Below are positions 12,001 through 54,900 of a DNA stretch of 64,000 nt, in pieces. Under the pieces are notes generated by a model, which made no database searches, was not told the origin of the DNA, and saw only the letters and a list, made by a program, of their open reading frames with translations. A program made the translations under genes and the position numbers. Positions within the stretch are counted from its first letter, which is position 1. Each line of letters starts with the position of its first letter. Source of the stretch: a virus (lineage: Duplodnaviria; Heunggongvirae; Uroviricota; Caudoviricetes); the IMG/VR virus record IMGVR_UViG_3300027798_000013, one strand, 5' to 3'.

Positions 12001-15000
12001 TGCTTGATATCGGCTCTATCAAAAACAAATCCTGGCACTTCAAAGCCGCCGAACCATTCACTACTAATAAAGCCAGCAACTTTAATACGTTCTTGTCTAT
12101 ATCCGCTTTCTGGATTGTATATAACGTCATTAAACACTGTCGTATTGTCTAAAATTAAGACTTGTTCTTTCTGTACTAGATAAAAACTAGCATTGTAAAT
12201 TGTTCCGTTATCGTCTGGACTAAATGTAACAATATTTCCTTGTCTGTTTGAATTTAAATCTGCCGGTGTCAAGCTACTGCCGTCTACCTTATAGATTTCG
12301 TATTCGTTAAAAGGATTATTAATATCCTCAGCAACGGACAACACTGAACTAAATGATAAACTGTTGGCCGCAGGACTTAGACTTATCACTGCGCTACCCA
12401 CTGTGTTTAATCCATCTAATTTGACGTAATTTGTTTCCTGGAACATGGGCTGGGCTGGAATATTTTGTAAAGCTCGGTAGTAAATATCTTGATATTTTAC
12501 AATAATTCCGTAACCAACTGCTTGATTAGGAATCCATTGTTGCCATGTATCTTGCCCGGTACTCCATTTTTGTGTAGTCCAGAACATAAATTCTTTAGCA
12601 GTGGTGCTCCAGTTTGAAACATTTTCAAGATTATTATTAAAATCTTCAAATATAAATCCTTGAGCTTTTAAATATTCGCCGTATCCTAAAATAAAATCAA
12701 CGACCTGCTGTACACTTGTTAATACAGTGCCGTAAGGTAATACGTTGATACTAGAAGAATCCCACGTATTTCTAAATACTGATGTTACACCTCCGGTGAC
12801 TGGAAGCTCGGGTAGCGCCGCAAATGCGGTTGAATCAAATACATCAGGTGTTACAGCATATAACGTTCTATAATATTTTCCGTTGTAAAATACAGTTTGG
12901 CCCACAGAGTAGGTCTTGCCAGCAGTCCAATTTACAAATGAAGCACTTATGCCGCCAACATTGATACGTGGACCAAGTTCTTGTCGAGGAGCAAAATATT
13001 TAAAAAATGCTTCTGAAAGACTGTACCCTTTGATTTCATATCCTTCAGATAATTTAGTAATGATAATTCCGCTGTAGGATAACTTGGCAATTGGGCTAGA
13101 ACTATTGTAAAATATTTTGTAATTTTCTGGAGGGACAAACACATTTCCAGTGGATGCTGGATTTTTGCTATCTAAGATTAAATTAAAATTGTTTTTACTT
13201 GTAAATCCGCTAACTCTGTAAGATAATTTGATATCCAGATTATCTAAATTATATTGATATTCATCGTAATAACTAACATTATTGTTTACTAGATATTCAA
13301 TCAAGTAGTTTATAATACCCGATGTGTACACTCTAGAACTACTAGAATAAATGCTTGGTAATAAAATATCACGGGGTTTAACATGTAATCCGGTGTCTTT
13401 GTAAACTAACTGTCCGCATAAATTTCTAACAGTTCGTGACTTGTCTAAACAGGTAGCAAGGGTATGCGCTGGTTTTAAAATCATTGATGCAATTAAAATA
13501 CTAAACGGATAATAACTACTGCGACGCCATGCTGACTCAACGGGCGCAACATCTCCAAATATATGACTACCTTGATTATCTGTATTGAACACACCTGTGG
13601 CTAATCTTGCACTAACTGGGCTGACTAGATTGCCGGATTCATCAACTGGTAGATGATTTAATAGATCGGGCCTTGCAAATTGTTTTCGATATTCAGCTGG
13701 CATACCAGGTGCTTTGACTGCACCTTCTTCCAGATCTTTCCACATGATAGTATTATTGCTGGTGTAAGGTGCTGGGCCATATACTTCTTGCCACCAACTA
13801 GGTTCTTCGCTTATTCCCAGCATTTCCCAAGGACATATATTTGGTTTGTCTGTATCATACACCCATCTAAAAATGCCGCGCCAGTATCCAGGTAGTTCTC
13901 TACCGTCTGGTGCAGAATGTCCTCTGTAATTATAAGTAAACGTGCTGTTTTTATCAAACCCTACTTGTTTAGAAAAGTCGCGGCCAACTAAGTTTGCCCA
14001 TTTATAAAATCCCAGAGCTAGTACTCGATTGATTTCATCTAGAGAATAATCAGAATTTCTATAGTATCCTGGAATTATATCGTAGATATCAAATATGTCC
14101 GAGTCGTACTGAATTTGTAAATTATTATAAATTCGTTTTTCTAATTCTAAAATAATATTATCGCGATAATCACCGTATGATAATGTTTGACTTCCGTCGT
14201 GACCTTGAATCATAGTGCGGGGAGTTAATAAACTATAATCAACATAGATTTTTGGCTTGAACTTTGGCCACAATCCTAACTTGGTTGGGGTTGGTGGAAT
14301 GAAACATCCATCGGTACTGTCATATTCAAATACTGTAAGTTTATCTCCGTCTACTAATCCAACAGTGTTGTTAATAGATACATAACCATCAGTTGTAAAA
14401 ATATAATCGATGCCATATAATAATTGTACACCAACTGGGGGCTGAACACCATTAAGATATATAGAAACTGCTTTGTTGCTTAGTTCTGTATTGCTATAAA
14501 CAGTCGTTAATGGGTATGTTCTAATTCGATTATCTACAACTGTATACTCTGTAATTTTTTTACCTGTAAACGGTACCATGTCACTGAAATAGTAAGACGA
14601 TTTTTTTGTTTTATTTGCAGATAATTTTTTAAGTATTAAATCCACTTGAGCAACTACATTTGTATCAGTTCCCAATTGTTGTGCCGCAAGTAAAAAACTG
14701 TGTTTGAATTTGCCGTAGTCATCCCTTGATTTTTCTAAGGCACGTACAATATTGTTTTGTTCGCTTGTGATATGGTACAGGGCTAAACTTGCAGGGCCAC
14801 TGTGTTGTATAAATTTTGTACCGTAAGCAGTAACATTGCCTAAATTTCTAAGATTATTTGATCCTGACACTACTCCTACAAAATTTTCTTGTATATTGTC
14901 AACAATTGAATTTAAGTGGTCAGCTACTTCACCCAATGTGAAATATTTCATATCAATGTTTAAAGGATTGTTTTGTAGATTAATAGGAATCTCATAAAAC

Positions 15001-17222
15001 CCGTTAGCATTAATTGGCTGAGCTGAAAATGCTTTAATTGTTAAAACGTCAGTAGCTAATAAATCTGTAGCAAATTTAATTTGTTTGTAATTAACCGCAT
15101 CGACCAGAGTCCATTTAACGGAATCGACTCGAGTTCCGTTGACAAATATTCTAATTTCTAAATCAATTAAATTTGTTTTATTATCATAGATGTCTAATGG
15201 AAAATTATTTGTTAGGTTAGAATCCTTGTAAATCCTAATGCCGGGCTGATACCGTGTTACCTTGCTGGTTTGCCAACCATTGACATACGTGGTATCATTA
15301 TTAAATTCTATCTTAGATAAAAATCCAGTGTTAACAGACTTAGTAACTAATACTTCGTTTTCTTTATAATCGAAAGTGTCCGATACTAAGTCAAACGAAA
15401 ATAGAATATCGCCTACATTGTTAATGTTTTGATAACTTAGACTGAATCCAAGAACACTGTCAGCTGTAGTTGTTCCTAATTTGTAGGAAAATATTTTGTT
15501 ACCAACAAATCGTGAACCCGAGTACGAAGAAAAACTTTGTTTATTTTCGTCAAACATGTCAAACAACGGTGATTGATTCACTGTTGTTTTTTGTTGCCCC
15601 AATGCCCACGTGGTTTCATTGTACCAAAATGCTTTGCCTTGATATGTTTGGCCTTGCCTTATTAAAATATTTGAATTTTTAACAGGTTTTTCGTCAAGCA
15701 ATAACCGTATCTGCGGCACGCCTATTCCTGAATTTTCAATATTAACAAACGTAACTTTATAAACATTATTTTTTACTAGTATATCCGCATCAGCAAGAAA
15801 CACAATACGCATACCTTCTGCCAAGTCAACTCCATCGATATTGTATCCGGCAGTACCTTCAATCGTACTGAACACATCTGTAGTGTAAGAGTCTACTAGA
15901 TCAACATCGTTGGTCGACAGTACGCCAAAGTTAAAAAGTTTTAAATCTGGGTTAAATTCAATAATAGGTCTTGTTGCACGGCTAGTTTGGTCGAAATCCG
16001 CAAGTTTATTATTAAATGCCGCGCTGTCGTTGATTGTATCTTTGTGGAACCATCGATTGTATCGTGACCACGGATTTCTATCTTTGCTTGCTTTGTTGAT
16101 AGTGACATAATCTAATTTGCCAGCATAGGAACTTGCGGCCGCAAATGGATATTGGTCAAATAATGTTGAATCAAATGCCACAGCTCGATCTTCTGTGTAT
16201 GTACTAATAACTTCAAATATAGTAGTTGGAATTAAACTAATTGCCGTGCCAACGCCTTCAACATAATACTCACCGGTAGCGTAAGTTGCTGGCGTTACAT
16301 TGCCGCCAAATGATACTTTCATACCGTTGCTTAGTGAAGTGCCGTTTGATAGTGTGTAAGTTTTTTTACCTATCAAATCTTTTTCAAGATCAATGTAGGT
16401 GTTTTCTGTAATATCTAAAAACTTAAAAATAGAACCTAAGTTAGAATCACGTTCACTTACGTAGTATAAAGTATCGGGGCCAGAAATAGGAACTATAAAT
16501 TTAACTGTACCGCTTGTAACTCCAAAATTGCTTACATAACCTTCATCTGTATATCTATCTAACGGGCCCAATGTTCTAGCTGTTTTGATACTGAACGGTT
16601 CTCCGGGACTATTAATTTCAAAATAGTAAGTTTGCCCTCTATATAAGGTTACTACTGGATTTCTATCCAAACCGTTTGGCGTAAACAAATACTCTTTTTG
16701 TTGAGTCGCACTTGTGCTAAGTTCTACTTTAAAGGTGCTTGAAACATTTAACTGCTGGCCAACAATATTAACAACATCTGGACCATATGGCAACCAATAA
16801 TATTGTTGGAAATTAATAAATTTATCCCAGTCAATGTGTGGATCCCAGCTGTAAAATTCTTGGCGGTTTAATCGCTCGTGATTGTCAACGTTGCCGCCAA
16901 ACACTTTTAATTGATTAATAAAATCCTGATAATCTTTAAAGAAGTCCACATTACCAGTAGAATCATTTACTACCACTGCTGGCTCTAACTGATAGTTTTG
17001 TCTTACAGTTGTTGGAGCATTGATATAAATGTCTTTGGCGCTGGCCGACTTGGCATTTTTACGGCCGATGTAACCGTTTACTTTTTTGGCTGTGCCTTTT
17101 TGTGTTAGCTGATCTATTGTTGCCTGTATGAATTTTCTATTATCGTCTGTACGATAATATTTAGGCAGTAAATCTACTGTAGAAAAATTGTTAGAACCTG
17201 TTGGATTTGTGTTATCAGACAT
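1..17222 (-). CDS. Giant (at least 5,740 aa, 3'-truncated by window edge) baseplate wedge/structural protein in the gp7 position, with an FG-GAP-like beta-propeller and many inserted beta-rich modules
   Basis: ATG at 17222 overlaps the gp6 stop (ATGTCTGA) and reads MSDNTNPTGSNNFSTVDLLPKYYRTDDNRKFIQATIDQL. The same frame is coding wherever spot-translated and at the window edge (DEIEVFVGGYDT). The ORF track lists no terminated ORF in this frame, consistent with no stop in the window. Confidence 0.85.
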   Translation of the reverse strand, partial: MSDNTNPTGSNNFSTVDLLPKYYRTDDNRKFIQATIDQLTQKGTAKKVNGYIGRKNAKSASAKDIYINAPTTVRQNYQLEPAVVVNDSTGNVDFFKDYQDFINQLKVFGGNVDNHERLNRQEFYSWDPHIDWDKFINFQQYYWLPYGPDVVNIVGQQLNVSSTFKVELSTSATQQKEYLFTPNGLDRNPVVTLYRGQTYYFEINSPGEPFSIKTARTLGPLDRYTDEGYVSNFGVTSGTVKFIVPISGPDTLYYVSERDSNLGSIFKFLDITENTYIDLEKDLIGKKTYTLSNGTSLSNGMKVSFGGNVTPATYATGEYYVEGVGTAISLIPTTIFEVISTYTEDRAVAFDSTLFDQYPFAAASSYAGKLDYVTINKASKDRNPWSRYNRWFHKDTINDSAAFNNKLADFDQTSRATRPIIEFNPDLKLFNFGVLSTNDVDLVDSYTTDVFSTIEGTAGYNIDGVDLAEGMRIVFLADADILVKNNVYKVTFVNIENSGIGVPQIRLLLDEKPVKNSNILIRQGQTYQGKAFWYNETTWALGQQKTTVNQSPLFDMFDENKQSFSSYSGSRFVGNKIFSYKLGTTTADSVLGFSLSYQNINNVGDILFSFDLVSDTFDYKENEVLVTKSVNTGFLSKIEFNNDTTYVNGWQTSKVTRYQPGIRIYKDSNLTNNFPLDIYDNKTNLIDLEIRIFVNGTRVDSVKWTLVDAVNYKQIKFATDLLATDVLTIKAFSAQPINANGFYEIPINLQNNPLNIDMKYFTLGEVADHLNSIVDNIQENFVGVVSGSNNLRNLGNVTAYGTKFIQHSGPASLALYHITSEQNNIVRALEKSRDDYGKFKHSFLLAAQQLGTDTNVVAQVDLILKKLSANKTKKSSYYFSDMVPFTGKKITEYTVVDNRIRTYPLTTVYSNTELSNKAVSIYLNGVQPPVGVQLLYGIDYIFTTDGYVSINNTVGLVDGDKLTVFEYDSTDGCFIPPTPTKLGLWPKFKPKIYVDYSLLTPRTMIQGHDGSQTLSYGDYRDNIILELEKRIYNNLQIQYDSDIFDIYDIIPGYYRNSDYSLDEINRVLALGFYKWANLVGRDFSKQVGFDKNSTFTYNYRGHSAPDGRELPGYWRGIFRWVYDTDKPNICPWEMLGISEEPSWWQEVYGPAPYTSNNTIMWKDLEEGAVKAPGMPAEYRKQFARPDLLNHLPVDESGNLVSPVSARLATGVFNTDNQGSHIFGDVAPVESAWRRSSYYPFSILIASMILKPAHTLATCLDKSRTVRNLCGQLVYKDTGLHVKPRDILLPSIYSSSSRVYTSGIINYLIEYLVNNNVSYYDEYQYNLDNLDIKLSYRVSGFTSKNNFNLILDSKNPASTGNVFVPPENYKIFYNSSSPIAKLSYSGIIITKLSEGYEIKGYSLSEAFFKYFAPRQELGPRINVGGISASFVNWTAGKTYSVGQTVFYNGKYYRTLYAVTPDVFDSTAFAALPELPVTGGVTSVFRNTWDSSSINVLPYGTVLTSVQQVVDFILGYGEYLKAQGFIFEDFNNNLENVSNWSTTAKEFMFWTTQKWSTGQDTWQQWIPNQAVGYGIIVKYQDIYYRALQNIPAQPMFQETNYVKLDGLNTVGSAVISLSPAANSLSFSSVLSVAEDINNPFNEYEIYKVDGSSLTPADLNSNRQGNIVTFSPDDNGTIYNASFYLVQKEQVLILDNTTVFNDVIYNPESGYRQERIKVAGFISSEWFGGFEVPGFVFDRADIKQWSSWADYALGDIVSYQGYYYSAVRFLPGTNEFESNNWMQIKKPQPSLLPNWSYKAGQFEDFYNLDQANFDTGQQKIAQHLVGYQKRQYLSNIIQDNISEFQFYQGMIKEKGTQNSLNKLFDVLSAENKESLTFYEEWGIRVGQYGASQAYEAVEFLIEQPDLTKNPQGFYLTIQPEASSNYNVNISANDVYVKPRGYNAEPWPVNNAQKLFLRTPGYVQPTDQVFQINTLDTLLTTDVTPFNTGMYIWVTFEKTSWNIYRFSSSDISPSDATYNSSNKTITIFSNNQLDSSLLGQYVALKQIAFAGFYKVVDVNLQDFTIEAPLYKPGPEWPTAETISANLEIFRLYSVRAPSIDNANDIIKAFTSPGDKIWIDKDSTNKWAELELTSVYSNTEIRKPYPTSDMAHGRIVVTNLEGTVAAVSTQVGEVIVYSKQGARWIFKQIIKRPFMAQNVFGQNPNALDTFANSMAMSPDGEFLAIGSPRVGLLATKQLPNGNVVCDQSALNSSNLLQGAVSLYQKTTYDEYLLLFTIASGDNTANQQFGSSLAFGNGKLFIGSIGPTGSGSQATIYELRYVAVEGVATVASNLNADGDDVNAIATVVYDGGLSSTTASTNDLVFDGGTALPIENTSDRWLLTKPGISIANGTSYGFGSDISVTNDNSILVIAAPLAGNVYIYSLDSNKNYNLIQTVAGPSQVVSNPTTTDGVFSFNGNTLSGGAGFRTTTDKFLRTTISSVTTTGGSGAGLVVDVIVNSQGVLQTVTVRDPGQNYKINDVITVVNPLGTGGVLALTWATSVFNSGVQYKIGDTVVYGGNYYVAILSTINNSVTNATYWSPLTFASSTTGIDIVTTTSRSGSNLKVKLAHTTTPGALPGSIIIPVTNVTNFELGQLIFSSTVPTAFASNTYITQVNSVTYSGVIQNNVLTVSKITNGLNPVVAEIIGSITDTTLTIEQLAGANIIPGMQLSGTGISGDYVIVSGSGTIWTISNAVTISTREIKATLYETIKPGMQLGNPALDTASSFTAIVTTKGTANLTGATTTLLGGIASMFNATITGITLTFDAITAGDPVTPGMVLTGAGVTAGTKILYGSGNSWIVNTSQTVASPITITGTLVSASISGFILTFTAFSGATLTPGTVLTGGTVIAGTTIVGGSGTSWTVSLSQTSTCTTATVPNGTISGNTLTFTASTGSPVEIGMVLLGGTVLDGTVITGGSGTTWYVNISQSTTCTQATSQAFLLNAEIKDTTLTFTDNTGIGLFAGMVLSGSGVVSGTYVVSGSETEWVVSAIQTVVPTTITGTTVVLTANTPSSGLILLGQRLSGNGVTSGTAIIASGSGTGKEGTYYVSPAQTVNSFAATSQYIITNPVIIDGITITGAAISGTALTFSGQSGGNVRVGMLVTGSNVLTGTKIVSGSGGSWQVSVTQAVVSTTLLLTGTGRGGIGTYIIDQELTVGLTPTVATGLTINIPLAATLTGSAEVTSLKISNQGFGYAIGDTVTFNRGGGQITMSISTVTANGSIAVATIGDGSVTKDSTQFGQSVAISKNGDYVAIGSPLQSDLQENEGRVYILSNNSAVGNTYREYQQILNPRQQSGDLFGFNIKFANDYKTLLIYSPGADSFDLTTFDTTETIFDSGSLVFKEISQNSGRIDVYDRYSKNWISGESLYTGGSNADGFGQSFAASDNTILVGAPHETEISENISGNPIIEINSGKVYSYEKFAGSFSWTPVHKQTDLIDIKKIKQAFLYNKVSNKLIRYLDIIDPSLGKIAGSAEQEISYKTFYDPAIYTVGSSSVNVDIGNSWQNKQAGKLWWDLRTAKFIDNHSENLIYRNSTLNMLASGASIDIYEWVETQLTPTEWKIQADTDAGLVNNISGTPLYTDSYSVKQYFNAFNNAFENTYYFWVKNKKLIPNVADRNISANAVSELISNPRGQGYPFIALTGKNSFSLINCQNLLNGDNVILGIEYWIIEQSDQNIHAQWKLIDNSTSTKLPAVIEEKWFDSLCGKDQADRPVPDLNLPAKLRYGIESRPRQGMFVNNFEALKQFVERVNLVLINEQIVGQRNISKLESYDAEPQLFTGVFDTIVDTDAELRIVSVSTAKSAVISPVIVNGSIVDVVIQSGGSGYKSSPTITIKGSGVGAKLKAIIDVAGVITGAEIISKGKGYTNSATLQIRPFSVLVRSDSVANGNWSIYSYVTNTITGIQSWVRVKTQSYDVRNYWNKIDWYATGFNQFSIIDFAVDVFAELGTVDPEIGQTVKVRISGSTGWQLLLCYSKSTSVDWTQRFQVIGIENGTLQLSSKLYSFVNNNIGYDSSIYDNTGYDYTASKELRILLNSLKDDILIDTLKSEYLNLFFAGIRYAHTEQTYIDWAFKTSFVKAQHNVGKLKQTITYKNDNLENFQDYIAEVVPYRTTVREFVSNYTSIDNSSSVITDFDLPAIFGSGNNSVIKTFVKDGKITGDRSEIQTYPWKHWLSNVGFQITSITIIDNGSGYVTAPIVRIISNSGSGAVAQAFIANGKVNRILLVSSGTGYLSAPTIIIDGGSSASGSTAKAIAVIGKSNVRSSFIKMKFDRTTNTYYTIQLNETHSFSGTGNKTKFSLVWAPDVKIGQSTVKVDNALVLRDNYTLTTVKSTAKGYTTYSGFITLKTAPALGSTLTVEYLKDIDLLNASDRIQYYYNPTTGQLGKSLDQLMTGVDYGGVIVTGLDYSVSQGWGSIGFMQDLWDSYENTYSDYAVTISNETVISRSFTLPYMPEVFTNINVYYSKIFNTSFTSDGSQLIYTLPSAYTFVDAIQIYLNKIVAGLTVNVTATSTEQISVTQLLTGFNYLKTASTTNLSLGKAIKIISGSFGGFITNLTYYVVAIIDSTTFKVGASVGGSEFTVAGGTGNMVIQYATSSNYLTAPTASLFSGLAFQFNGAVFGGLATGVTYYVKDIVSPTLFTVSATIGGSVFPVSSAQGTMPLSQVAAAPAATVNLNNITGLKVGDLANCSIPGAIADGTSIKQILTATNQVILTNILYGDILAGIQINFVRSLAAPIDFRYLTSVSLQLSEPPSAGAIINVTTSFDPVRIDDENFAKQWVITGTEAGTNIVTTITPITFNIGDTIGFTGTLFGNIQPATTYYIKEIPTNRTFKISATLAGPEYILVSASGSMIGRSTGNPNAVMSTYIADGTAPIITIPSTYTLIAGDVIIFRKSSSDGAVPISASDFDTALDGGTLEYNSATGLNPDDIIVDGDGFVTTNTSGAPEEVVPGQVVDSVAIKVFDRPSDGSATVKVLNYVADGVNKKFSLEQFPNSQDAVYIKLNSTVLATGIDYYLDYPNKQVVLRNVPTNGSIVTLHSFGFNGTNILDADYFVADGKTKEFITKAPYVNTDFNYLVYLDGVAINPTLFKTDNTYDSPNRIGFRFSIAPTKFQTLNYLIVLGNQQTYAVFKNEKLATNGSSTYTLSNTIGSSVPLETSVLVRANQQILQGPRTTYFTISTNQYTYTLDILSVQPYSVNTADLTVYADGILLELNTDYIVDTSAVSISINKKVYSKYKGKRLIINVKSDQDYYIVGNTITFSQAYGLSDYVEVVSAYKHDILQIQRTRTKATNNLQFSSVNADYYRYVGVLGGRIELPSTILTEPQLWVTKNKLLLINGVDYRVNPDLTSITLGTPPAINDEFEAIIFAGESVKAGISYMQFKDMLNRTVYKRLNLYKQNELIQDLYYYDKEIFVKDAGNFDKPNPAINKPGVVEINGERIEYFTVKNNTTLGQLRRGTLGTGVPTVHGTGSKVQDIGPSETIPYVDTFKTEQITIDNYTTKLIIPLSFVPGKTTSSWSATPASLKLFDNAVIQKFVSKTGTGPYLVTFAVPQQSYTPALNKLLLVANNSNTKYNGYHTVSSSNISNSITIVPQSVNPFVPVGSTIDVTFAISTQTTAPVTGIYYVISGSNPIEYNGAWLCSASTSTSITLSIPNNYGVFKVLPSLIKSTHTITVSYDTDPGVYSTKLITTLSASTYGEADEIEVFVGGYDT

Positions 17223-26094: not shown

Positions 26095-26117
26095 AATATT
26101 TGGTTCTCCTGATACTC

Positions 26118-26123
26118 TATTTA
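26118..26123 (-). promoter_or_regulatory. Late promoter core TAAATA for the baseplate operon
   Basis: TAAATA upstream of AGGAGA (26105-26110, minus strand) and the ATG at 26094. Confidence 0.7.
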
Positions 26124-26124
26124 T

Positions 26125-26153
26125 TTGACTTTAATCTGTGCGTAGTTTATAAT
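26125..26153 (+). promoter_or_regulatory. Sigma70-type early promoter for the gp55-gp47-gp46 operon
   Basis: TTGACT (26125-26130), 17 bp spacer, TATAAT (26148-26153); a GAGGA RBS and ATG 26175 follow. Confidence 0.85.
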
Positions 26154-26174
26154 TTACTTTACGAGGACTCTTTA

Positions 26175-27032
26175 ATGACAGCAAAAATCAATTACTTGAA
26201 CAACAAAGATATGCTTTTGGAAATACATAGATCTAAAAGCAGTTATTGTAGTTTTACCGATCCAAAGTTTCATCAATATGACTTAATTATACCCAGCACA
26301 GACAAGGTAAACATACGCACAGTTGCCGAGGCCAAACGCAATCAAGCCAAACGTATTGGAGATGCTGAGTATCAAAGGCGCAAAAAACTAGGTGAAAAAG
26401 TCAAACAAGCAGACTGCGAAGTAGACTATAAAAAAATTCAAAAGCTGGATTTGGTATTCAGGGTTATGACTTTTGACCATATTCCTCTGAACAGCACACG
26501 TAAGAAAAATCCCAAAAGTCTAGCTGACCACAGAGACAAGGTGAACTTTCCACCGTTCCAACATTGGAAGTTCAATGATACAGACGAACTAGTTTGTGTG
26601 GGTAAAAGCCACTGGAAGGGCACATTGGACAAGGGCCACTTTGATAAAGATGCTGGACAAATTACACCTACACTGGCCCGCATGATGATTAAACTGTGTG
26701 AACGATATGCTACCCGTGGCAACGTTCGTGGCTATACTTACAATGACGAAATGCGGGGACAAGCTATTTTACAGCTAACACAAGTGGGCTTGCAGTTTGA
26801 TGAAAGCAAGAGTGACAATCCGTTTGCTTATTTTACTGCGGCTGTGACCAACAGCTTTGTTCGTGTTATCAACATTGAAAAACGCAACCAAAACATCCGC
26901 GATGATATACTAGAAATGAATGGTATGAATCCATCATACTCACGTACCGGCGCTGGAGAACATGCGGCCGCACTTAAACGTCATGCAGAGGACACAACTA
27001 ATGAATCAACCAATGACACACCAACTGTTTAA
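26175..27032 (+). CDS. gp55: Late-transcription RNA polymerase sigma factor, T4 gp55-like
   Basis: NYLNNKDMLLEI, NVRGYTYNDEMRGQAILQL and FDESKSDNPFAYFTAAVTNSFVRVINIEKRNQ motifs; syntenic with gp47/gp46; start reassigned to the ATG with an RBS. Confidence 0.9.
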   Translation: MTAKINYLNNKDMLLEIHRSKSSYCSFTDPKFHQYDLIIPSTDKVNIRTVAEAKRNQAKRIGDAEYQRRKKLGEKVKQADCEVDYKKIQKLDLVFRVMTFDHIPLNSTRKKNPKSLADHRDKVNFPPFQHWKFNDTDELVCVGKSHWKGTLDKGHFDKDAGQITPTLARMMIKLCERYATRGNVRGYTYNDEMRGQAILQLTQVGLQFDESKSDNPFAYFTAAVTNSFVRVINIEKRNQNIRDDILEMNGMNPSYSRTGAGEHAAALKRHAEDTTNESTNDTPTV

Positions 27033-31184: not shown

Positions 31185-31994
31185 ATGAAGATTTTAGACA
31201 TAATAACTGAAGCCGCAACTCCTGTTACTGCTGAAGCAGTGGCACTGGCTTGGATAACAGCAAACCCTGACCAAGCTGATGCACATCGGGCGGCACTAGA
31301 AAAGAAATGGACTGCTGGCAACAGTGCCATGCGATTTTTTAAAACCACTAATATATGGTTGCCTACTATAGAAGCTGGTGCCAAAGTATATGCTTTGGAA
31401 CAAATTGCTGGACAGCCCCTTGCACAATTCAAACAAGGCTATCCTGAGTTTGCCAGCTACACAGAAGAGCAAAAAGCAATATGGATCAGCAAGGCAAGAG
31501 ATGAAATATTTGGCATATGGGTCGCTCAGTATGCCACACAAGCTCTGATACGATTTGCATTTGGATCTGCTTCATTACTGGGAACATTTTTACGCACATT
31601 TGGCGGAGCGGCTGGCACTGTCATTACTAAAAAACCTGGCATTGCCGGTAAATTGATTGAAGAAGGTATAGTTGCGGCCGCACAGGTATTTCTATCAAGC
31701 CCGTATGGAACCAAAATGATAAAAGAATATATTGGTCCTGCATTTTTCAATGTGCCAGGTGCAATAGTTACTGGTAGTTGGGATTGGTTAGTTAAGTGGA
31801 TTGAAGAGTGGACCGGTATCAATATCAATAAAACGGTCACACCTAATATTACTGCCGCAGTGGACGTGGCATCAGCCGCAAGTACCAATGGCATAAAATG
31901 GTCCGATCCTGCGCAGGACGCTAAAGACTATGCTGATTTTGAAAAGCAGACACGATCAAGAGGCATGACAGGTAAAATGCCAGGTCAACTTTAA
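31185..31994 (+). CDS. Hypothetical late protein, candidate internal head/ejected protein
   Basis: 269 aa under a late promoter; N-terminus MKILDIITE resembles a capsid-targeting peptide; Gly/Ala-rich amphipathic core. Confidence 0.7.
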   Translation: MKILDIITEAATPVTAEAVALAWITANPDQADAHRAALEKKWTAGNSAMRFFKTTNIWLPTIEAGAKVYALEQIAGQPLAQFKQGYPEFASYTEEQKAIWISKARDEIFGIWVAQYATQALIRFAFGSASLLGTFLRTFGGAAGTVITKKPGIAGKLIEEGIVAAAQVFLSSPYGTKMIKEYIGPAFFNVPGAIVTGSWDWLVKWIEEWTGININKTVTPNITAAVDVASAASTNGIKWSDPAQDAKDYADFEKQTRSRGMTGKMPGQL

Positions 31995-32224
31995 ACCAAC
32001 GGCATTCCACTTTTCTGTGTGATCTCAATGTTTTCTTCAATGATGGTGCCCATCAGTGTTAGATCTTCTTTGCTAAGTGTAAACAACAAATCGTCTATGC
32101 CAACACCGCCACGCATGTACCAGCATATACGAAACAATGTGGTCTTGAGTCGCTTGACATCTTTTTCTAGCCTAACTAGATATTCTTCAATTTCTTCGTT
32201 GGAAAGTCTAATTAGGCGTTGGCG
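31991..32224 (-). CDS. -1 frame extension (77 aa) of the gp26-like gene; putative frameshift product or gp51-like hub/tail assembly chaperone
   Basis: Open frame RQRLIRLSNEEIEEYLVRLEKDVKRLKTTLFRICWYMRGGVGIDDLLFTLSKEDLTLMGTIIEENIEITQKSGMPLV* begins right at T TTT TTC and exactly fills the gap between two genes. Confidence 0.7.
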   Translation of the reverse strand, partial: RQRLIRLSNEEIEEYLVRLEKDVKRLKTTLFRICWYMRGGVGIDDLLFTLSKEDLTLMGTIIEENIEITQKSGMPLV

Positions 32225-33048
32225 AAAAAACTGGATTGATCCATGTTCACAAACAGGGAATTGTCAGCTTTGCAAGACTCGCAAACCACTTTGACCGCTG
32301 GCAGTTCCCAACGTTTTCTATTTTCTTCAACTTTTATCTTGATAGCATCAAACACACTCTTGTCACAGTTGTTGAGCCACTCTTGAATAAACTGTCGTTG
32401 GTTGGTAACACCCTCTGGCGACTCAACACTTTCCACTTGTTGCATCAGCAGATCATTTTGTATCACTGTGACTTTTTCAAACAATCCAGCCAGCAATTTC
32501 TTTTGTTCTTCTTCATGCTCGATAGCATCCATGGCCATAGCCTGCGCCAGTTGACGTTGGATTTGAAAGTTTTTGGTTTGAAATTCAGTCCATTGCTTGT
32601 AGTTTAATGGGTGTAGTGTAATTGTTATGTCTTCCAAAGGCACTTTGCTGTTGTATTCGCAAGTGCTAAAATGCTGTACAAAAGTGCCTAGGTCAATATC
32701 ATAATCATTTATTTCTTTGCAAGCACTACAGGTGTGACTAACTGCCATGGTGTTGCCTTCAGTGGCAATTCGTATGGCCACTAATAACAAATCCAAATCC
32801 AACAAACACAAATCCCAAGCATCCTTGATTGTGGGGCAACAGCTTTCAATGACCTTTGTGGTGCTTTCTCCGTTCAATAGTGCATCAGGAGTTTTGACTA
32901 GAATTTCGTCCATGCCAGTCATGCCATAAACTGATACGTTATCAGGGTCTCCGTTCAGTGTGCCCGGTTGATTAAAAATACCCTTGCTAGGCAGTTTAAC
33001 ATAGACTTTGGGTTGTCTAAAATACTTTTTCAATGGGTTATTGGCCAT
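32212..33048 (-). CDS. Baseplate hub assembly/tail chaperone protein, T4 gp26-like
   Basis: NPLKKYFRQPKVYVKLPSKG, MTGMDEILVKTPDALLNG, DLDLLLVAIRIATEG and two CxxC pairs (CSAC, CESC); divergent from the tape-measure-like gene. Confidence 0.75.
   Translation of the reverse strand: MANNPLKKYFRQPKVYVKLPSKGIFNQPGTLNGDPDNVSVYGMTGMDEILVKTPDALLNGESTTKVIESCCPTIKDAWDLCLLDLDLLLVAIRIATEGNTMAVSHTCSACKEINDYDIDLGTFVQHFSTCEYNSKVPLEDITITLHPLNYKQWTEFQTKNFQIQRQLAQAMAMDAIEHEEEQKKLLAGLFEKVTVIQNDLLMQQVESVESPEGVTNQRQFIQEWLNNCDKSVFDAIKIKVEENRKRWELPAVKVVCESCKADNSLFVNMDQSSFFANA
32224..32230 (-). promoter_or_regulatory. Putative -1 programmed ribosomal frameshift slippery heptamer T TTT TTC
   Basis: AGT TTT TTC GCC AAC GCC TAA: an in-phase X XXY YYZ site three codons before the stop. 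Confidence 0.65.
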
Positions 33049-33061
33049 TATTATCTCCAGA

Positions 33062-33085
33062 TAAATATACTATAACGTATTTATA
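33062..33085. promoter_or_regulatory. Face-to-face pair of late promoters (TAAATA plus at 33062-33067; TATAAATA minus at 33078-33085)
   Basis: Two inverted late boxes 10 bp apart in the spacer between the divergent gp26-like and tape-measure-like genes. Confidence 0.75.
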
Positions 33086-33109
33086 TGCGTGTATTTCAAG
33101 GAAAAAATA

Positions 33110-35194
33110 ATGGCCGCTTCAAAAGTTGTTGATATGACAGTAGACGAGTTTGCCCAAGCAATTGCCAAAGCAGTAGGTGGTAGTAGCTATCAAACCGACA
33201 ATTCATCTAGAAGTGCCGCCAAGGCAGACTCGGTAGCATATTTGGTCGACCAGATGAAGAATGGTTTGACAGGCATACTGGGAGAGATGAAAAACTTTGC
33301 TGGCAAAGCTATTGAGCAAACAGCAGATGTTAATGATGCAGTGGAAATGGTTGGAAATACCATGAGCAAAGTTTTACCCAAAGAGATTGGAGCAATCTTC
33401 AAATCATTGGGTGGTTTTGTTGCAGATTCAGTTAGAGATTGGCAACAGGTCAGTAGCTTAGGATTTCAAATGGGCGGTGATGCCATGGCATTCCGTCAGG
33501 CATTCTCATCAACTGGCATGAGTGTAAAGGATTGGGCTGGAATGTTAGACACCACCAAACCTGCATTTGCATTGTTGACTGGCAATCTCAGTACAGGTGC
33601 TGAAGCATTTGGCCAATTGTCTTTTGAAATACAAAACAGCACGAACAGTCAAGCATTTCAAAAACTAGGCATGCTTCCTAAAGATTTGAATGAAGCCTTG
33701 GCAGTGACCATTCAAGCACAAGGTGTCCAGCGTCTTCAAGGACAAAGTCAGCAGGACCGTATGAACGATTTCTTAGCATCAACTGTTGCTCTTTCAAAGG
33801 AGATGGATGAACAAGCAAAACTCACTGGCATGAGCAGACAAGAACAACTGAAAAATGTAAAAGCCATTCAAGAAGAAGCGCAGACTCGTGCGGCCATATT
33901 GCAATTCCGTCAAAAAAATCCCGGAGGTGAAGCAACACTGGGAGCCATCAATGCTTCTTCAGCTGGATACGGGCAAGAAATGCAAAGAGCATTGGTAATG
34001 TCGGTAGCAAGAAATGGCGCAATAACTCAACAGATGGCCAACGACATTCAACAAACATACGGAGCTGAAGTGTTGGCTCAAGTTGTAGAAATTGGTAGAA
34101 TGGCCAACAGCAGTAGCAAAGAAGTTAGAGATCAAGCAGTGACAGCTTCAAAAGCTCTTCAAGGGCAAATGGGTGATGGCCTGATTAGAATGTCACAACA
34201 GCACAGTTATGGTGTTGGTCTTCAAACAAGAATGGCTCAAGAAGCATATGACAAACAGTTTAATAGAGAAACAAGCATAGCGGCATATAGAAATGCTGAT
34301 CCTTCTCGTGCAAACATGCGCGATAACGAAATTGTAGCAATGATCAAAGAAGATATAGAACTGCAACAAGAAGGAAAAAGACTTAAAGACGAAGTTGATG
34401 CAAAGGGCAACCTTGTTGAAGGCGGATACAGACGCGGAGATAGAGATCCAGCGGCTCTGACCACAGAGTTAACTATGGAGATGCAAAGAAATATCACATT
34501 GTTTGGTAGTAATCTCAACAGAGCGGCGGTTACTGCAAATAGAGAATTACTGAGCAATCCTACAATAGCAGGTGCGGCCCAGGACACGTTGGATGCAAGT
34601 AGAAGAACTGGCACTACAGCAGAATCCAATATGAAACAAGCGCCAGTAACAGCTTTAACAACTGTTGCAATACAAGCAATTAAAGACCTCAATGTGGAAG
34701 CCGGAAACAGTCAGAAAAAAATATTAGCTGAGTGGAAATTAACTCTCACAAGACTTGAAGAAATGTTTGGTAAAATTACTAGAATGGCAGACGGAACTAA
34801 TCCTAGTAAATCTGGCAATGGCAGTTGGTTCCAAGGCGGCCCACAATTGTCTATGTGGGCTGAAGCTGGGCAAAGAGAAGCTATTGTGAATGAAGGCGAT
34901 CTAGGGCAGTTTATGATGGACAACATAGGAATGGTCAGCAATTCAGGTGTCAACAGTCCCACAATGAATTCATTATTGAGAAATATTCCAGTTCAAATCA
35001 GCAGTGTCAAGGAAGCAGTCAACGCTCAAGTTGAGCAAGCAATCAACAGTACCACAGATCAATCTGAACTAGTGTCGGCTTTGCGCGAGATAAGTACAGT
35101 GATGCAAGTAACGGCATCAACCATGAGAGAAGTTGCTAGAAACACTAAAGATACAGCCACAAACATTAAAGCCGCTGGCATTAATATTGTTTAA
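33110..35194 (+). CDS. Putative tail tape measure protein
   Basis: 694 aa, helical Ala/Gln/Met-rich; LAVTIQAQG..LSKEMDEQAKLTGMSRQE motif; C-terminal MADGT..WAEAGQREAIVN; adjacent to the chaperone; AAGGA RBS before ATG 33110. Confidence 0.65.
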   Translation: MAASKVVDMTVDEFAQAIAKAVGGSSYQTDNSSRSAAKADSVAYLVDQMKNGLTGILGEMKNFAGKAIEQTADVNDAVEMVGNTMSKVLPKEIGAIFKSLGGFVADSVRDWQQVSSLGFQMGGDAMAFRQAFSSTGMSVKDWAGMLDTTKPAFALLTGNLSTGAEAFGQLSFEIQNSTNSQAFQKLGMLPKDLNEALAVTIQAQGVQRLQGQSQQDRMNDFLASTVALSKEMDEQAKLTGMSRQEQLKNVKAIQEEAQTRAAILQFRQKNPGGEATLGAINASSAGYGQEMQRALVMSVARNGAITQQMANDIQQTYGAEVLAQVVEIGRMANSSSKEVRDQAVTASKALQGQMGDGLIRMSQQHSYGVGLQTRMAQEAYDKQFNRETSIAAYRNADPSRANMRDNEIVAMIKEDIELQQEGKRLKDEVDAKGNLVEGGYRRGDRDPAALTTELTMEMQRNITLFGSNLNRAAVTANRELLSNPTIAGAAQDTLDASRRTGTTAESNMKQAPVTALTTVAIQAIKDLNVEAGNSQKKILAEWKLTLTRLEEMFGKITRMADGTNPSKSGNGSWFQGGPQLSMWAEAGQREAIVNEGDLGQFMMDNIGMVSNSGVNSPTMNSLLRNIPVQISSVKEAVNAQVEQAINSTTDQSELVSALREISTVMQVTASTMREVARNTKDTATNIKAAGINIV

Positions 35195-48990: not shown

Positions 48991-51900
48991 ATGGCAGAGT
49001 TTAAGATAAACAGATTACGTTATACTTGGTTAGGAGCATGGGTCACCGGCACCGTCTACGGCAAAGACTCAGTAGTACAGTACAATGGTAAGACATTTGC
49101 ATGTTTGATTGCGCACACTGCTAATGCTAACTTTTATAACGATTTAAATTTTGTAGATGCATTGGGCGCGGCAACTCCATTCTGGCAAGTTATCGTTGAC
49201 GGCAAAACATGGAAAAACACCTGGGCCACTAATAGATTTTACAGCGAAGGCAACATTGTAGCGTTTGGTGGCACACTCTATACCTGCGTGACTCCGCATA
49301 CCAGTACAGCGTTTGCTTCACAATCTGCCAATTGGATACAATACTCACAATTCACAAGATGGGACGCGGCCAATTCCAAAACCAACTGGACTATCAACAC
49401 AGTTTATGGCGTGAACGATGTAGTAAAATATGGCGGAATAGTGTATGTGTGTAACGCAAATCATACCAGTTCTGGAGCACTGACTGCCGGCGCCGACCCT
49501 GAAACAACATCGGGACTTGAAGCAGATCAGACCAAATGGACTGTTCTTAATAGTGGTATTGATTATCAGCCAGCTGGCTGGTCAAACGGCACACGTTATA
49601 AATTAAATGACGTTGTTAAATTTGGAGCTAACTTATGGAAGGCCAATGCTGGTCACACGTCTAGCTCTACATTTAATCCTGCTAGATGGGCCATGTGGCT
49701 TCCAGGCGAATCGTATAATCCTACCACGTGGACTTCTAGCGGCCTATATCAAATTGGTGATGTTGTAAACTACGGCGGCTACCAGTATATTAATAATACC
49801 ACAAATAATACTAACAATGTTCCATCCACTGATGCAACTAACTGGACGTTGTTTACCAAAAATTATAATTTTAGAAATGATTGGATTACTACAACTGCTT
49901 ATAAAGTTGGCGACACTGTTAGAAGAAACGGTAGACTATATACTGCCATATCGGACGTTAGCGCAGGTGTTGACCCAAGTAATAGCTTGTTATATAAAAC
50001 ATACACTGCGTCAGGCAGTAGTGGAACAACATTGAAAGTAAATTCAACAACTAGTATTGTTGTTGGAATGATAGTGATAGGAGCAGGATTTTCATTAGGT
50101 CAATCAGTGCTTTCTGTTAGTGATGCATCCACAGTGATACTTGGCTATGGGCCTGACAGCACTCCAGCTAACGGCCAGACACTGACATTTGTTGGAGTTA
50201 GTACCGGCTGGGCGTTAGTAAATACTGGAAATTATTATATAGGCCCATGGGCAACAACTCCGTCAAGTTATACTATTGGAGATTTGGTAGTTTGGAAAGA
50301 TGCCACATACATGTGTATTCAAACACATGCAAATACCAGTACGCTAAACACTGTGCGTCCTGATTTAGACACAACTAGATCGTACTGGTCGCTGTTTATT
50401 AACCATGATAAAAACAACAGCTTAACAAGTTTAGGAGACATTGAAGCATACAGTGTTGGCCAACCAACAGCTATTCCTATTGGAACAGAATCTTATTCTT
50501 TGAGAGCTACTACAAACACTGGTACTCAATTAACAACTCCTACATGGGCACATTTGCACGGAATTAATAATATATATTATGTTGCTCCTACAGGAACTGA
50601 TAGCCTAACAAGCGGCTGGGGCGAAACTTGGGACAAGCCTTTTAAAACTATTGCGTTTGCTTGCAACTATGCCAACGCCGGAAAACTAAATCCAAATGCC
50701 AAAACAAATTTAGCCAATGCTAAAAATTGGATGGTTACAGAAATGTACTATTGGATGTTGTATCAAAAACAACAATCAATATCACCATTCACTCCAAGTT
50801 CCGTGTTTGATGCAACTAAAACTTTTAGAGATGCACAGTATGTAATCGATGCATTGGGTTATGACATATCTCGAGGCGGCAACAGTCAAACAGTGGCAAA
50901 TGCACTAGCGTATTTTGCACAAGAAAATGCAAATACATTTATCAATACATCTACCGCCGCACAAATGCCTTATATTATTGCAGGCCTAAACAAGTTGTTG
51001 GAATTGATAGCTAGTGGTATCAGCGGTAATGCTCCTGCTCAGAGTTATCAAACTTTGATTGGTGCAACTTCATTTACCGGAAGTATCAGCGGCACTACAT
51101 TAACAGTTACCAGCTCGCCAACCAATGCTGGAATTTTAATAGGACAAGTTATTAGCGGTGGCTCAATACCAGCTGGAACATACATTGTGAATAAAATATC
51201 AGGTACTGGAACTAGCCCAACTAGTTCGTGGACTGTTAGCAAAACAATTACGCAATCCAGTATCACAATTACCAGTGTTCCAGTAACACAACCCACTGCT
51301 CTGGGAGCAGAATTTAATGCACTGACTGAAATTACAAGTTTGTTTAATTTGATTATCACAGCATTGACAACTCAAAGCACAACAGCATTACCGACTCCTA
51401 ATTCTGGAGTAACTGCCACTGTGTTTGTTAAGACTGGAACATACGACGAAAGTCTTCCTATTATTATTGGAGAGAATGTTGCAGTGTGTGGAGACGAATT
51501 GCGCGGCACAGTGGTGCAACCAGCAGTACGGATCGTCCAAAAAATTACCGCGGCATCAAACACATTTAACACATTAATAACTTCAGATACTTCTAAGTTA
51601 GCAGGCTCAATGCCAATACAACTGGTAACAACGTTTGCTGGTCTAATCGCAGGCACAACATACTACGTTATTGGTAGCAGTATTACCCCAACACAATTCA
51701 GCGTTAGTACTGTTCCGGGAAGTTCTACACCAGTTACATTGACACTGGTTACTAATGGATCTGTTACAATGTATGCTGGTGATTGTTTAAAAGACATGTT
51801 CCGTCTGCGTAATGGCAGTGGCTTAAGAAATATGACTTTGAATGGCTTACTGGGAATTATAGGACCGCTCAACGGATACCTTACACAACGTCCAACAGGT

Positions 51901-54900
51901 CCATCATATACCAGTTTAGACCCAGGTACCGGACCAACAGACACCACTGCTTGGATTTTTAGACGTAGCCCGTATGTACAAAACGTAACCACCTTTGGCG
52001 AAGGATGTGTTGGTTTAAAAATTGACGGAACACTACACAATGGTGGAAATAAATCTATAGTATGTAACGATTATACCCAGGTTATTAGTAACGGAATCGG
52101 CATTTGGGTGACTGGGCCCAGTTCAGTTTGTGAAGCAGTTTCAGTATTCTCTTACTTTGGCTATGCAGGTTATTTTGCAGAAGACGGTGGCAGACTTCGT
52201 GCTACCAACGGCAACACTTCGTATGGTAGCTATGGTGTTATTGCGGAAGGATACGACAATACGGAGATTCCTATTACTGGAATTGTGTTCAATCAGTCAA
52301 GCCAAGTTCAAGCCACAGTTCAAAGTAGCTTTGGTTCATCTGCCCAGCTAATTCGTACATCTTTTTCAAATGCAGGCGCGGCCTACAATACAACAACTAC
52401 TAACCTGCTTATTTCCAGTAATAATTTTGAAACAAACTGGACAAACAACAATGTTGTGCTATCAAAAAATACAGTAGCACCAACAGGAAATGTAGAAGCA
52501 TGGGCATTTACAGCATCGGGTACAAATGCATCCATTACTCAAGGGTTTGGTGTTTCGCCCGCAGGTGCATTATATTCTGCATTGTCAGGCATTGGCGGCT
52601 CAGGCTCTAGTGCAACATTTGATGTGAGAGTCACAGGAACTGCTTATGTTGTAACAACAAATTTTGGCGGATCTGGTTATATTGTTGGAGATCAAATTAT
52701 CATCTCTGGAGGTTTACTTGGCGGTGTAAACATTGTTAACGATTGTACATTGACTGTGTTTTCATTATCGGGCACTGCAATTTTAACAGTTACATCTAGC
52801 GGAACTGTGCCACTGGGTAGTGCAAAAAGTTACACAACTAGTGTTTATGTCAAACGAGGCACTGCCTCTACGGTGGCTCTGGGCGCAAGCTGGACTGGAG
52901 ATACCAGTATATCCAACGGAATAATTTTTAACTTTGACTCGAGCGCAATAACTCCGTTCAACGATAGTATAATGCCATCACCTACACAGTATGGAGCACT
53001 GTCATTGCCCGACGGTTGGTATAGATTATGGTTTGCATCGTATGACTCTACGGGATTAAACAATGCCATATACGCATCGATTATTCCAGTTGGTCCTGCA
53101 AGTATTACCGGCCAGTATAATCTTTTCTATGGCGCACAGTTAGAAAATTCATCAGTATCTGGATATCCATCCTTTTACTTACAAAATGACGGTGCAACTA
53201 GATACACAGCATACGCTAATTACAACATTGTTGGATCTGGTACTGGGGTAATCGCAGTGGGAGATGAAATTCGATCCAGCGCCGTGTTTGAAACACGAAT
53301 CACTACTGACAGTGCTGGCATCACAGGCGGCGCTGGATATTTGACAGCCAGCAACAACACCCAAAGCGGTACCACACAATATGTACAGTTGGCCCAATCA
53401 GATGTAAACACAGCTCAAAATTATATTGGCATGCGTCTGTTTATTAATAGCGGAACTGGCGCGGGCCAGTATGGTTATGTTTCATCATACGATTCAGGTA
53501 CTAAGATTGCATATATATTGAAAGAATCGTTTGATACATTGCAAATAATTTCGTCCAGCTCAGCAGATAACACAATGTTATTGGGATCAGCATTTGATAC
53601 CAGTACCGTATACTCTGGACAGCCTGTTCAGTTTATTCCTACCTATTACAACACATCAGTAGCCACAATTGGAATTAGCAGTGTGAGTGTGACTGCGGCA
53701 ATAGGTGGAACTACAAATACATTAACTGTTACCAGTACTGCACAATTACGTGCAAATATGCCTATAACTTTCAGCGGCGGACTCAGTGTGTTTAGTAATG
53801 TGTTAGCTGGATTCACATACTATATAAACGAAATTGTCAATGGCACAACTATTAAAATTTCAGACTCACTGTTTGGAGTCGATTGGCCGCTGTCAACTGC
53901 TACTGGAAATATGACATTGAATTATCCGTCGTATACAAATTACTTACAAGCAGTTACTCAAAACATGGTTGTTAATTATCCTATTCAGTTTACTGGAACT
54001 AGTGTGGGCGGACTAACCGTTGGAAATACTTACTATATCAACGATGTAGTTGACGGCAGTAATTTTACAATTTCAGGTTCGTTAGTAACAGTTTCTCCCA
54101 CAGCATCCAACTCGGTAACTAGTAATACATACACGGTTACCAGCACGTCTGTGTTGTCAGTGTTGAATCCAATTTTATTCACAGCTGGTGCAGGAACACT
54201 GTTTGGCGGTGTTGTTGAAGGTACGAAATATTATATTAGTAAAATCAACAGCCCTACAGAATTTAGTATTTCGACCACTTTAAATACAGTTACAGTTAGT
54301 GCAACTTCTGGCACAGGAAACAACTTAATTACTTGTTCATCCACTACTGGATTTATTTCAAACAATCCAATCAGATTTGTTGGACTGACATTTGGTAACT
54401 TGGTTGCAGAACAGATATATTATGTGTCAGCCATTAGCGGAGACGGAGTTTCATTCTCAGTCAGTAACTTGCCAGGACAATCAGCTGTGAACTTAACAGC
54501 CGGAACTGGTATTTGTTATGCTAAAACATGTCCAGTGGCATTTCCGTTGGCAGCCGCTAGCGGAACTATGACTGGTACTAGTACGTCTAATAAAACACTA
54601 TTAACCTACGGATACTCCACAATTAACGCTACGTTTTCAACACAATTATTTGGTAACGTGGTATTAGGCACGACTTACTATGTTAACACTATTGACTCGC
54701 TAACTAAAAAAATAACCGTTTCATCATCACTTGGTAATGTTGGAGTTAGTTCAGTCACATTGTTGACCAAAACAGGGTCTATGAATTTGGCCGCGGTTGG
54801 TTGGGATCATGTGAATCCTGGAACTCCGACCAGTAATACACTAGATTCATCAAGCGTATATTTTATCGAACCTAGAACAGTATATCAAGAACCAACATTC

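Follow-up and report, generated by a model that had tools for sequence, protein, structure and literature searches.

Introduction

How could a phage make both a short and a long protein of one hub-assembly family from a single gene? The question is raised by a gp26-like gene in a stretch of 64,000 nucleotides (nt), IMG/VR record IMGVR_UViG_3300027798_000013, which was analysed at its full length and is called the window below. Its source is an uncultured giant T4-related phage, and the stretch carries a gene for a gp55-like late sigma factor together with portal, wedge and hub genes. The gp26-like gene ends in a slippery heptamer followed by a further open reading frame (ORF) in the -1 frame, and an inspection of the letters alone (hereafter the sequence-only reading) had proposed that a hidden -1 frameshift joins the two. 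The comparative analysis described here points to programmed -1 ribosomal frameshifting close to where this single gene of the gp26/gp51 family ends, a reading to which a probability of about 0.87 is given. The predicted products are a short form, which terminates in the 0 frame, and a long form with an additional tail.

For phage T4, Table 2 of Leiman et al. 2010 (PMC3004832) gives 'hub assembly chaperone' for gp26 as well as for gp51. They are counted among the least understood essential tail-assembly proteins of T4, and gp51 is needed for assembly yet absent from the particle (Leiman et al. 2010, PMC3004832). Programmed -1 frameshifts in the tail-assembly genes of phages are events of a known kind; the gp26/gp51 family is not known to use one. 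Full-text searches of the literature turned up no report of a gp26/gp51 frameshift, and database records give separate genes.

The slippery site

The 0-frame ORF of the window ends AGT TTT TTC GCC AAC GCC TAA, where AGT is codon 273. In its coordinates and numbers the earlier description proved accurate throughout: the heptamer is in phase and at the coordinates given in Table 1, the -1 frame has 77 codons, the predicted products have 278 and 352 amino acids (aa), and the first ATG of the -1 frame, at 32116, would yield only 41 aa.

The close relatives used for comparison come from 80 IMG/VR loci with 49-92% protein identity, which represent 65 distinct sequences; counts out of 65 below refer to this set. 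The same arrangement of frames is present in 78 of the 80 loci and in the window, the other two being one truncated locus and one that runs off its contig. Conservation of the heptamer, named by the sequence-only reading as a check, is complete: NNT TTT TTC G occurs in 65/65 distinct relatives. The codon before TTT TTC has T as its wobble base in 65/65, though the encoded residue varies (N/S/G/D/T/H). The second Phe codon at the site is always TTC, against a ratio of TTT to TTC of 511 : 85 for Phe elsewhere in the gene. The distance to the 0-frame stop is 1-13 codons in every case. Protein homologues (n=1987) are almost all 274-275 aa long, so that the gene callers have ended them at this same stop. 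Within the short form, C107, C110, C256 and C259, which make up two CxxC pairs, and the two phenylalanines F274 and F275 are invariant in alignment A1; the counterpart motifs of T4 gp26 are CTCG..CPEC..EFFELL.

The extension in the -1 frame

The predicted long form comprises 275+77 = 352 aa and is encoded by 33048-32224 plus 32224-31991, with base 32224 read twice. Its trans-frame junction is predicted to be ..DQSSFF/RQRLIRL.., the slash marking the change of frame. The -1 frame is 79 codons long in 64 of the 65 relatives and 78 codons long in the remaining one. Mean pairwise identity is 56%, and the entropy by codon position is 0.93/0.54/1.35. Judged from the sequences, this frame varies like coding sequence and is under purifying selection. 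Were it not for the extension, 217 nt of an otherwise tightly packed genome would be non-coding.

The way in which ribosomes could reach the extension is narrowly limited. No ATG, GTG or TTG is conserved before codon 38 of the -1 frame in the 65 relatives, yet residues 1-38 are conserved as protein, with R3, L6, L18 and K29 invariant; the coding signal upstream of the internal ATG, which the sequence-only reading had noticed in the window, thus extends across the clade. On the 5' side of the heptamer, the -1 frame stays open for 0-29 codons only, and in 8/65 relatives a stop abuts the heptamer directly. With no conserved start before codon 38 and early closure upstream, the first half of the extension is therefore reachable only from the gp26 frame. 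No Shine-Dalgarno (SD) sequence for a separately started extension was found in this clade. Searched alone against Pfam and PHROGs, the extension gave nothing at E <= 0.01 and only chance-level matches at E <= 1.

The RNA stem-loop downstream of the heptamer

The sequence-only reading had seen no clear stimulatory hairpin. This view had to be given up, as an 11-bp covarying stem begins 6 nt past the heptamer (Table 1). Covariation was assessed on 61 distinct rows of alignment A2, with 500 shuffles and with a slid 3' partner as a control. Standard pairs are formed in 95.1% of the stem cells, compared with 88.8% in the shuffles, where the observed value was reached by 0/500; with the slid 3' partner, only 15-55% are paired. 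Compensatory changes occur in 5/11 stem pairs (for example, A-U to G-C at two positions and G-C to A-U at another), and these argue for an RNA-level constraint on the stem. The fold of the window site has a minimum free energy (MFE) of -19.6 kcal/mol (z -3.1). In the MFE fold the U-run is base-paired as well, with an A-rich stretch downstream of it, but there is no apparent conservation of this in the alignment.

Natural single-ORF long forms

A profile of the extension was compared with 1.84 billion representative proteins, which gave 286 matches, of which the best 150 were examined. Among these best 150 of 286, there are 19 single-ORF proteins of 319-351 aa that carry PF12322 and the tail in one frame, along with many fragments of 41-98 aa whose starts lie at various internal codons. 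A word-based search for fused forms of the extension found none, whereas the profile search did find such forms. The junction of the natural long forms, ..LDFxxxFRxKLI.., is colinear with the junction predicted for the window; it has a single F, and these proteins are therefore not homopolymer errors.

One natural long form, P0142, is encoded on metagenome contig Ga0316221_1017412 and has the junction AAT CTC TTT CGT, with no heptamer. Directly 5' of its gene lies a tail-less PF12322 paralogue (E 1.3e-36, profile positions 3-249 of 348), and the tandem paralogues, located at 3-2048 of the contig, share a frame with one TAA between them. In T4 and the P0142 lineage, both of which lack the slip site, a short and a long gene thus occur together in the genome, which is to be expected if both forms are needed. 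The tail-less copy of this contig has lost all four Cys and has an in-phase T_TTT_TTA near its end, and the next ORF (2052-3224) starts with a hydrophobic segment.

An AlphaFold2 model of P0142, built from an 80-row alignment, reached a predicted local distance difference test (pLDDT) score of 95.8 and a predicted template modelling (pTM) score of 0.91. In the model, the tail consists of helices at residues 256-266, 269-298, 303-307 and 311-331. A Foldseek search of the model against the PDB returned nothing at E <= 0.001, and the VIA wide search returned generic helical hairpins only (Z <= 8.3, residues ~135-190). The 79-residue tail profile also matched P0190, a protein of 1435 aa with Listeria-Bacteroides repeats (PF09479), in five stretches at E 9e-12; this match is probably a compositional or repeat artefact.

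Relation to gp26 and gp51 of T4

The short form matches PF12322 (T4_baseplate) with 48.7 bits (gathering cut-off 24.5), E 1e-12, over profile positions 41-219, and phrog_150 ('baseplate hub') with E 2.8e-15, over positions 2-233 of 282 only. In T4, PF12322 covers residues 1-201 of gp51 (249 aa, E 3.9e-52) and residues 1-206 of gp26. The phrog_150 profile is followed to position 280 in gp51, but only to ~235 in gp26 and in the short form of the window. Because PF12322 is common to both T4 proteins and the phrog_150 coverage is longer in gp51, gp51 is regarded as a gp26 paralogue with an extra tail.

The comparison of the extension with gp51, also among the checks named beforehand, was made with hhalign. 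When profiles of 96 long forms, some conceptual and some natural, and of 10 gp51 sequences were aligned, the probability was 82.9% and E 9e-6, and the alignment extended to the last residues. When only the tails were compared, E was 8e-6 and the score 29.5, compared with 9.7 +/- 2.4 for 100 column shuffles, of which 0/100 reached the score, and with 7.8 for a reversed control. By eye, the cyanophage tail bridges the extension and the gp51 tail. A region search for gp51 tails recovered 3 close relatives only. For the T4 gp51 relatives P0275-P0277, the precomputed domains place PF28602 next to PF12322, and PF28602 may model the gp51 tail.

The sequence comparisons give strong support to recoding, with a short form that corresponds to T4 gp26 and a long form that corresponds over its entire length to T4 gp51. 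The proposal of a gp26/gp26-gp51-like fusion made by recoding is therefore kept in one half and corrected in the other: recoding stands, but gp26 is not fused to gp51, since the whole long form is the gp51 counterpart.

The distribution of family members agrees with this correspondence. T4 has two PF12322 copies, whereas RaK2, 121Q, PA5oct, Atu_ph07, S-PM2, P-SSM2, HTVC008M, KVP40 and RM378 have one each. These nine single-copy genomes are complete and all have a T-run at the site, followed by a -1 tail in eight and by a +1 tail in RM378. Five long IMG/VR contigs likewise have one PF12322 gene each, although these contigs are incomplete. The two-gene state attributed to T4 by the sequence-only reading was confirmed in the form of two PF12322 paralogues without a slip site: the gp26 gene ends GAG TTC TTT GAG TTA CTA TAA and is followed by gene 25.

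The window thus resembles T4, whose gp26 has 208 aa and gp51 249 aa, in that the proteins belong to the same family, the short form ends at FF, and the genes are late genes for the tail and baseplate. It differs from T4, where there are two divergently transcribed paralogues, in having one gene plus the proposed recoding. The tail is also longer, with 77 aa compared with ~48 aa in gp51, and the body is longer by ~70 aa.

Occurrence in other phages and annotation

Among cultured phages, jumbo myoviruses come closest, with 23-31% identity. Twelve cultured jumbo phages were compared, namely Atu_ph07, Phosso, PA5oct, RaK2, 121Q, CBB, GAP32, XacN1, Xoo-sp13, RAS14, RsoM2USA and SCTP-2, and all of them (12/12) have a slip site at the conserved FF, which is T_TTT_TTC in 8 and T_TTT_TTT in 4. 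Their -1 ORFs have 72-84 codons, and most have a stem ~6 nt downstream. Another clade, represented by 15 further distinct IMG/VR loci, has AAT TTT TTC G followed by 78 codons. The arrangement is also found outside the jumbo phages: cyanophages S-PM2 and P-SSM2 and vibriophage KVP40 have T_TTT_TTC with a -1 ORF of 59-62 codons, and pelagiphage HTVC008M has T_TTT_TTT with a -1 ORF of 65 codons. The window is like S-PM2, P-SSM2 and KVP40 in having T_TTT_TTC at FF, a -1 ORF and one PF12322 gene per genome. It is unlike them in that there is no ATG-started tail ORF, so that a frameshift would be the sole conventional route to the first 38 conserved codons.

Existing annotation treats the tail in various ways. 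In GenBank, the tail of the jumbo phages is either a small hypothetical ORF or unlisted, and a slippage join is given in none of the 12. For S-PM2, P-SSM2 and KVP40, it is given as a separate mini 'gp51', for which the name 'gp51 baseplate hub assembly catalyst' is also used; the GenBank note on KVP40.0327 reads 'similar to a 40 amino acid stretch at the C-terminus of T4 ... gp51'. The family phrog_18291 (59 positions, unknown function) seems to be made of such tail fragments from RaK2-like phages. The CBB record calls the gp26-like protein a 'structural protein', while the gp51 homologue of Acinetobacter phage Octan (MT409116) is labelled 'tape measure protein assembly chaperone'; the two labels conflict on whether gp26/gp51-like proteins are present in the virion.

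Rhodothermus phage RM378 (NC_004735, ~26430-26700) is a special case. Its only PF12322 gene has a T7 run in its ending, TCC TTT TTT TGG .. TGA, and a sequence that resembles the tail, FFGISYDSEEELEKIV.., sits in the +1, not the -1, frame. This could reflect a homopolymer error in an old record, polymerase slippage, a +1/-2 shift or a long form that is naturally in frame.

Proposed mechanism

We infer that the slip is ribosomal, that its efficiency leaves the long form in the minority, and that the products have a chaperone role. During late transcription, most ribosomes would read ..AGU UUU UUC GCC AAC GCC UAA and release the 278-aa form. A fraction of the ribosomes would pause with two tRNA-Phe on UUU UUC, because the 11-bp stem-loop 6 nt downstream would block the mRNA entry channel. 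Both tRNA-Phe could then re-pair one base back onto U UUU UU, after which the next codon would be CGC (Arg). The shifted ribosomes would add 77 residues to give the 352-aa form, the predicted counterpart of T4 gp51. In this way, one gene would supply tail-less and tailed hub-assembly proteins at a fixed ratio, whereas T4 has two paralogous genes for them. The helical tail might provide an extra contact that is meant for a minority of the copies only.

Alternative explanations

Transcriptional slippage is the alternative that survives best, though it is unlikely. In this case, RNA polymerase would add one U on the T6 run, and a minority of mRNAs would encode 352 aa in one frame. The site is indeed a homopolymer, the runs reach T7-T8 in XacN1, Xoo-sp13, RAS14 and RsoM2USA, and an extra U would yield the identical SFFR junction. 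Furthermore, the T7 run of RM378 with its +1 tail is not explained by a ribosomal -1 slip. Known efficient polymerase slippage uses ~8 or more T. Six T are short by this measure, and in most lineages the run is exactly T6 and then C. The fixed 6-nt spacer and the covarying stem also correspond to the classic geometry of ribosomal -1 frameshifting.

Still less probable is the existence of two genes, in which the extension would be an independent mini-gp51 translated from an internal or unusual start, and the heptamer would be kept by the FF pair and the overlapping Arg codon. Gene callers here and annotators of 121Q, CBB and other phages do list small ORFs of 41-98 aa. In S-PM2, P-SSM2 and KVP40, an ATG stands right after the gp26 stop; independent initiation is therefore possible there. 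For the clade of the window, such a reading has to contend with the conservation of codons 1-38 as protein with no start conserved before codon 38 and no SD, and with the -1 stop lying directly before the heptamer in 8/65 relatives. It must also accommodate single-ORF homologues that run through the junction, as well as the invariance of the rare TTC and of the preceding wobble T. An assembly or sequencing error in an error-prone homopolymer run, hiding a simple 352-aa ORF, or a decaying pseudogene can practically be set aside, given that ~100 independent assemblies and the finished genomes of >15 cultured phages show the same frames, that a 0-frame stop is always within 1-13 codons, and that the -1 frame is under purifying selection.

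Several observations weigh against a programmed -1 ribosomal frameshift or weaken parts of the case for it. The window contains 12 copies of TTTTTTC, compared with ~21 expected, so the heptamer is no commoner than chance; frequency alone is therefore no evidence, and the significance of the site comes from its conservation. Of these copies, the one at 32230-32224 is, from a reading of the coordinates, the sole sense-strand, in-phase copy inside a long ORF. The FF pair is conserved in T4 gp26 too, and therefore part of the nucleotide conservation at the site is protein-driven. The conservation of pairing in the stem could partly reflect protein constraint, as the 3' arm encodes a conserved LVRL. 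Evidence for homology of the extension and the gp51 tail is moderate, the best shuffle scoring 26.5 against the observed 29.5, and a narrow, freshwater-only profile of the extension compared with the single T4 gp51 sequence by hhalign gave a probability of 1%, a result that the broader profiles replaced. A separate start of the mini-gp51 is possible in the cyanophages and KVP40. Finally, the likeness to lambda G/GT is an analogy only, as no sequence or fold relation to tail assembly chaperones was detected.

Comparison with known frameshift systems

For the proposed programmed frameshift, the closest functional parallel is lambda G/GT. Xu, Hendrix and Duda reportedly described in 2004 (Mol Cell 16:11) a -1 frameshift that is conserved in tail assembly chaperone genes, including lambda gpG/gpGT. 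Both cases would involve a -1 slip on a heptamer close to the 3' end of a late gene for tail morphogenesis; the major product would be short and the minor one long, with the N-terminal part in common, and in both the genes lie near the tape measure gene (here a presumed one). The differences are also clear. The body has ~275 aa and a 4-Cys motif, whereas G-type chaperones have ~90-140 aa, and the presumed tape measure gene is divergent instead of directly downstream. The link to G/GT that the sequence-only reading had drawn is thus one of functional analogy only; the searches detected no relation of sequence or fold. The U6 run is also like that of phage P2 E/E+E', for which Christie et al. 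are said to have described in 2002 a frameshift at TTTTTTG.

In E. coli dnaX, a heptamer and a stem-loop ~6 nt downstream stimulate a -1 slip that gives tau and gamma as fixed-ratio products. The window shares the heptamer, the stem-loop ~6 nt away and the prediction of two proteins. In dnaX, unlike here, the shifted frame ends at once, which makes its product the shorter of the two, and there is a contribution from an SD-like element further 5'; no such upstream stimulatory element was seen in the window.

Functional implications

By analogy and from T4 genetics, the two forms might serve as a fixed-ratio pair of hub-assembly chaperones acting like G/GT, a proposal for which the odds appear even. 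Such a pair would act in assembling the baseplate hub and the tape measure. Equally balanced is the broader idea that gp26/gp51 is the T4-superfamily counterpart of lambda G/GT, with one gene and a -1 frameshift as the state that is ancestral and prevalent to this day, seen in RaK2-like jumbo phages, cyanophages, pelagiphages and KVP40, and the two-gene state of T4 and some few further lineages as a later duplication that fixed the short and long forms in separate genes. If this were true, essentially every long-tailed phage would share the recoding of a chaperone for the tail or hub at a fixed ratio, with T4 being no exception, and many 'mini-gp51' or 'hypothetical' ORFs in databases would be mis-annotated tails.

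The proposed frameshift matters in several respects. It would make gp26 and gp51 one protein in two lengths, both of which most T4-like lineages would produce by recoding one gene, and it leads to the testable idea that the ratio of tail-less to tailed protein matters, as for G/GT. It would also correct a systematic annotation error in cyanophages, KVP40 and RaK2-like jumbo phages. The locus adds a deeply conserved candidate -1 frameshift signal with a covarying stem, which can serve as a test case for frameshift-prediction tools, and in the clade of the window no conventional start is possible for the tail.

Genomic context

The coordinates of the features discussed here are collected in Table 1. 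From what is known of T4 late promoters, the motif 5' of the gp26-like gene is a putative promoter, and a gp55-like sigma factor is present in the window.

Table 1. Features of the gp26-like locus and its surroundings in the window.
Feature	Position	Strand	Remarks
Slippery heptamer T_TTT_TTC	32224..32230	-	In phase (AGT TTT TTC); form X_XXY_YYZ
0-frame ORF, gp26-like baseplate hub protein, short form, 278 aa	32212..33048	-	PF12322, phrog_150
-1 extension, FF + 77 codons + TAA (31993-31991)	31991..32230	-	Predicted gp51-like tail of the long form
Spacer GCCAAC, 6 nt	32218..32223	-	Length constant in alignment A2
Stem-loop, 11 bp, 26-nt loop	32170..32217	-	RNAalifold consensus
Stem 5' arm GCCTAATTAGA	32217-32207	-	Contains 0-frame stop TAA (32214-32212)
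Stem 3' arm TCTAGTTAGGC	32180-32170	-	Pairs with the 5' arm
Shine-Dalgarno GGAG	33055..33058	-	6 nt before ATG at 33048
Putative late promoter motif, T4-type, TATAAATA	33078..33085	-	5' of the gp26-like gene; read from the sequence
Convergent gene	31185-31994		Stop overlaps the -1 frame TAA (31993-31991)
Divergent neighbour, 695 aa, possible tape measure (gp29 analogue)	33107..35194	+	Context only
gp55-like late sigma factor	26100-27032		Basis: phrog_12791

The divergent neighbour of 695 aa may be the tape measure protein, but the leads are weak. The nearest named clusters in the ESM Atlas are tape measure proteins (score 0.91), with few features in common, and the annotators' note on the RaK2 counterpart reads 'similar to tail tape measure protein'. 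For this neighbour, no match was obtained in Pfam, in PHROGs or by tblastn, and BLASTP against T4 gp29 was not significant (E 0.12). Searches by tblastn with each protein flanking the gp26-like gene and by blastn with the locus against cultured phages gave no match. In P-SSM2, S-PM2 and KVP40, a large unnamed gene directly follows the ORF pair; in Pfam searches, the proteins presumed to be tape measures in P-SSM2, KVP40, S-PM2 and RaK2 matched no tape-measure family. The start of the 695-aa neighbour is probably the ATG at 33107-33109, which has AAGGA in front, and not the GTG at 33089 of the ORF list.

The baseplate and head modules are flanked by huge ORFs at 3-17222 (-), with >5740 aa, at 48991-56838 (+), with 2615 aa, and at 56893-63999 (+), with >2369 aa. 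Flanking ORFs of this size are in keeping with a jumbo phage.

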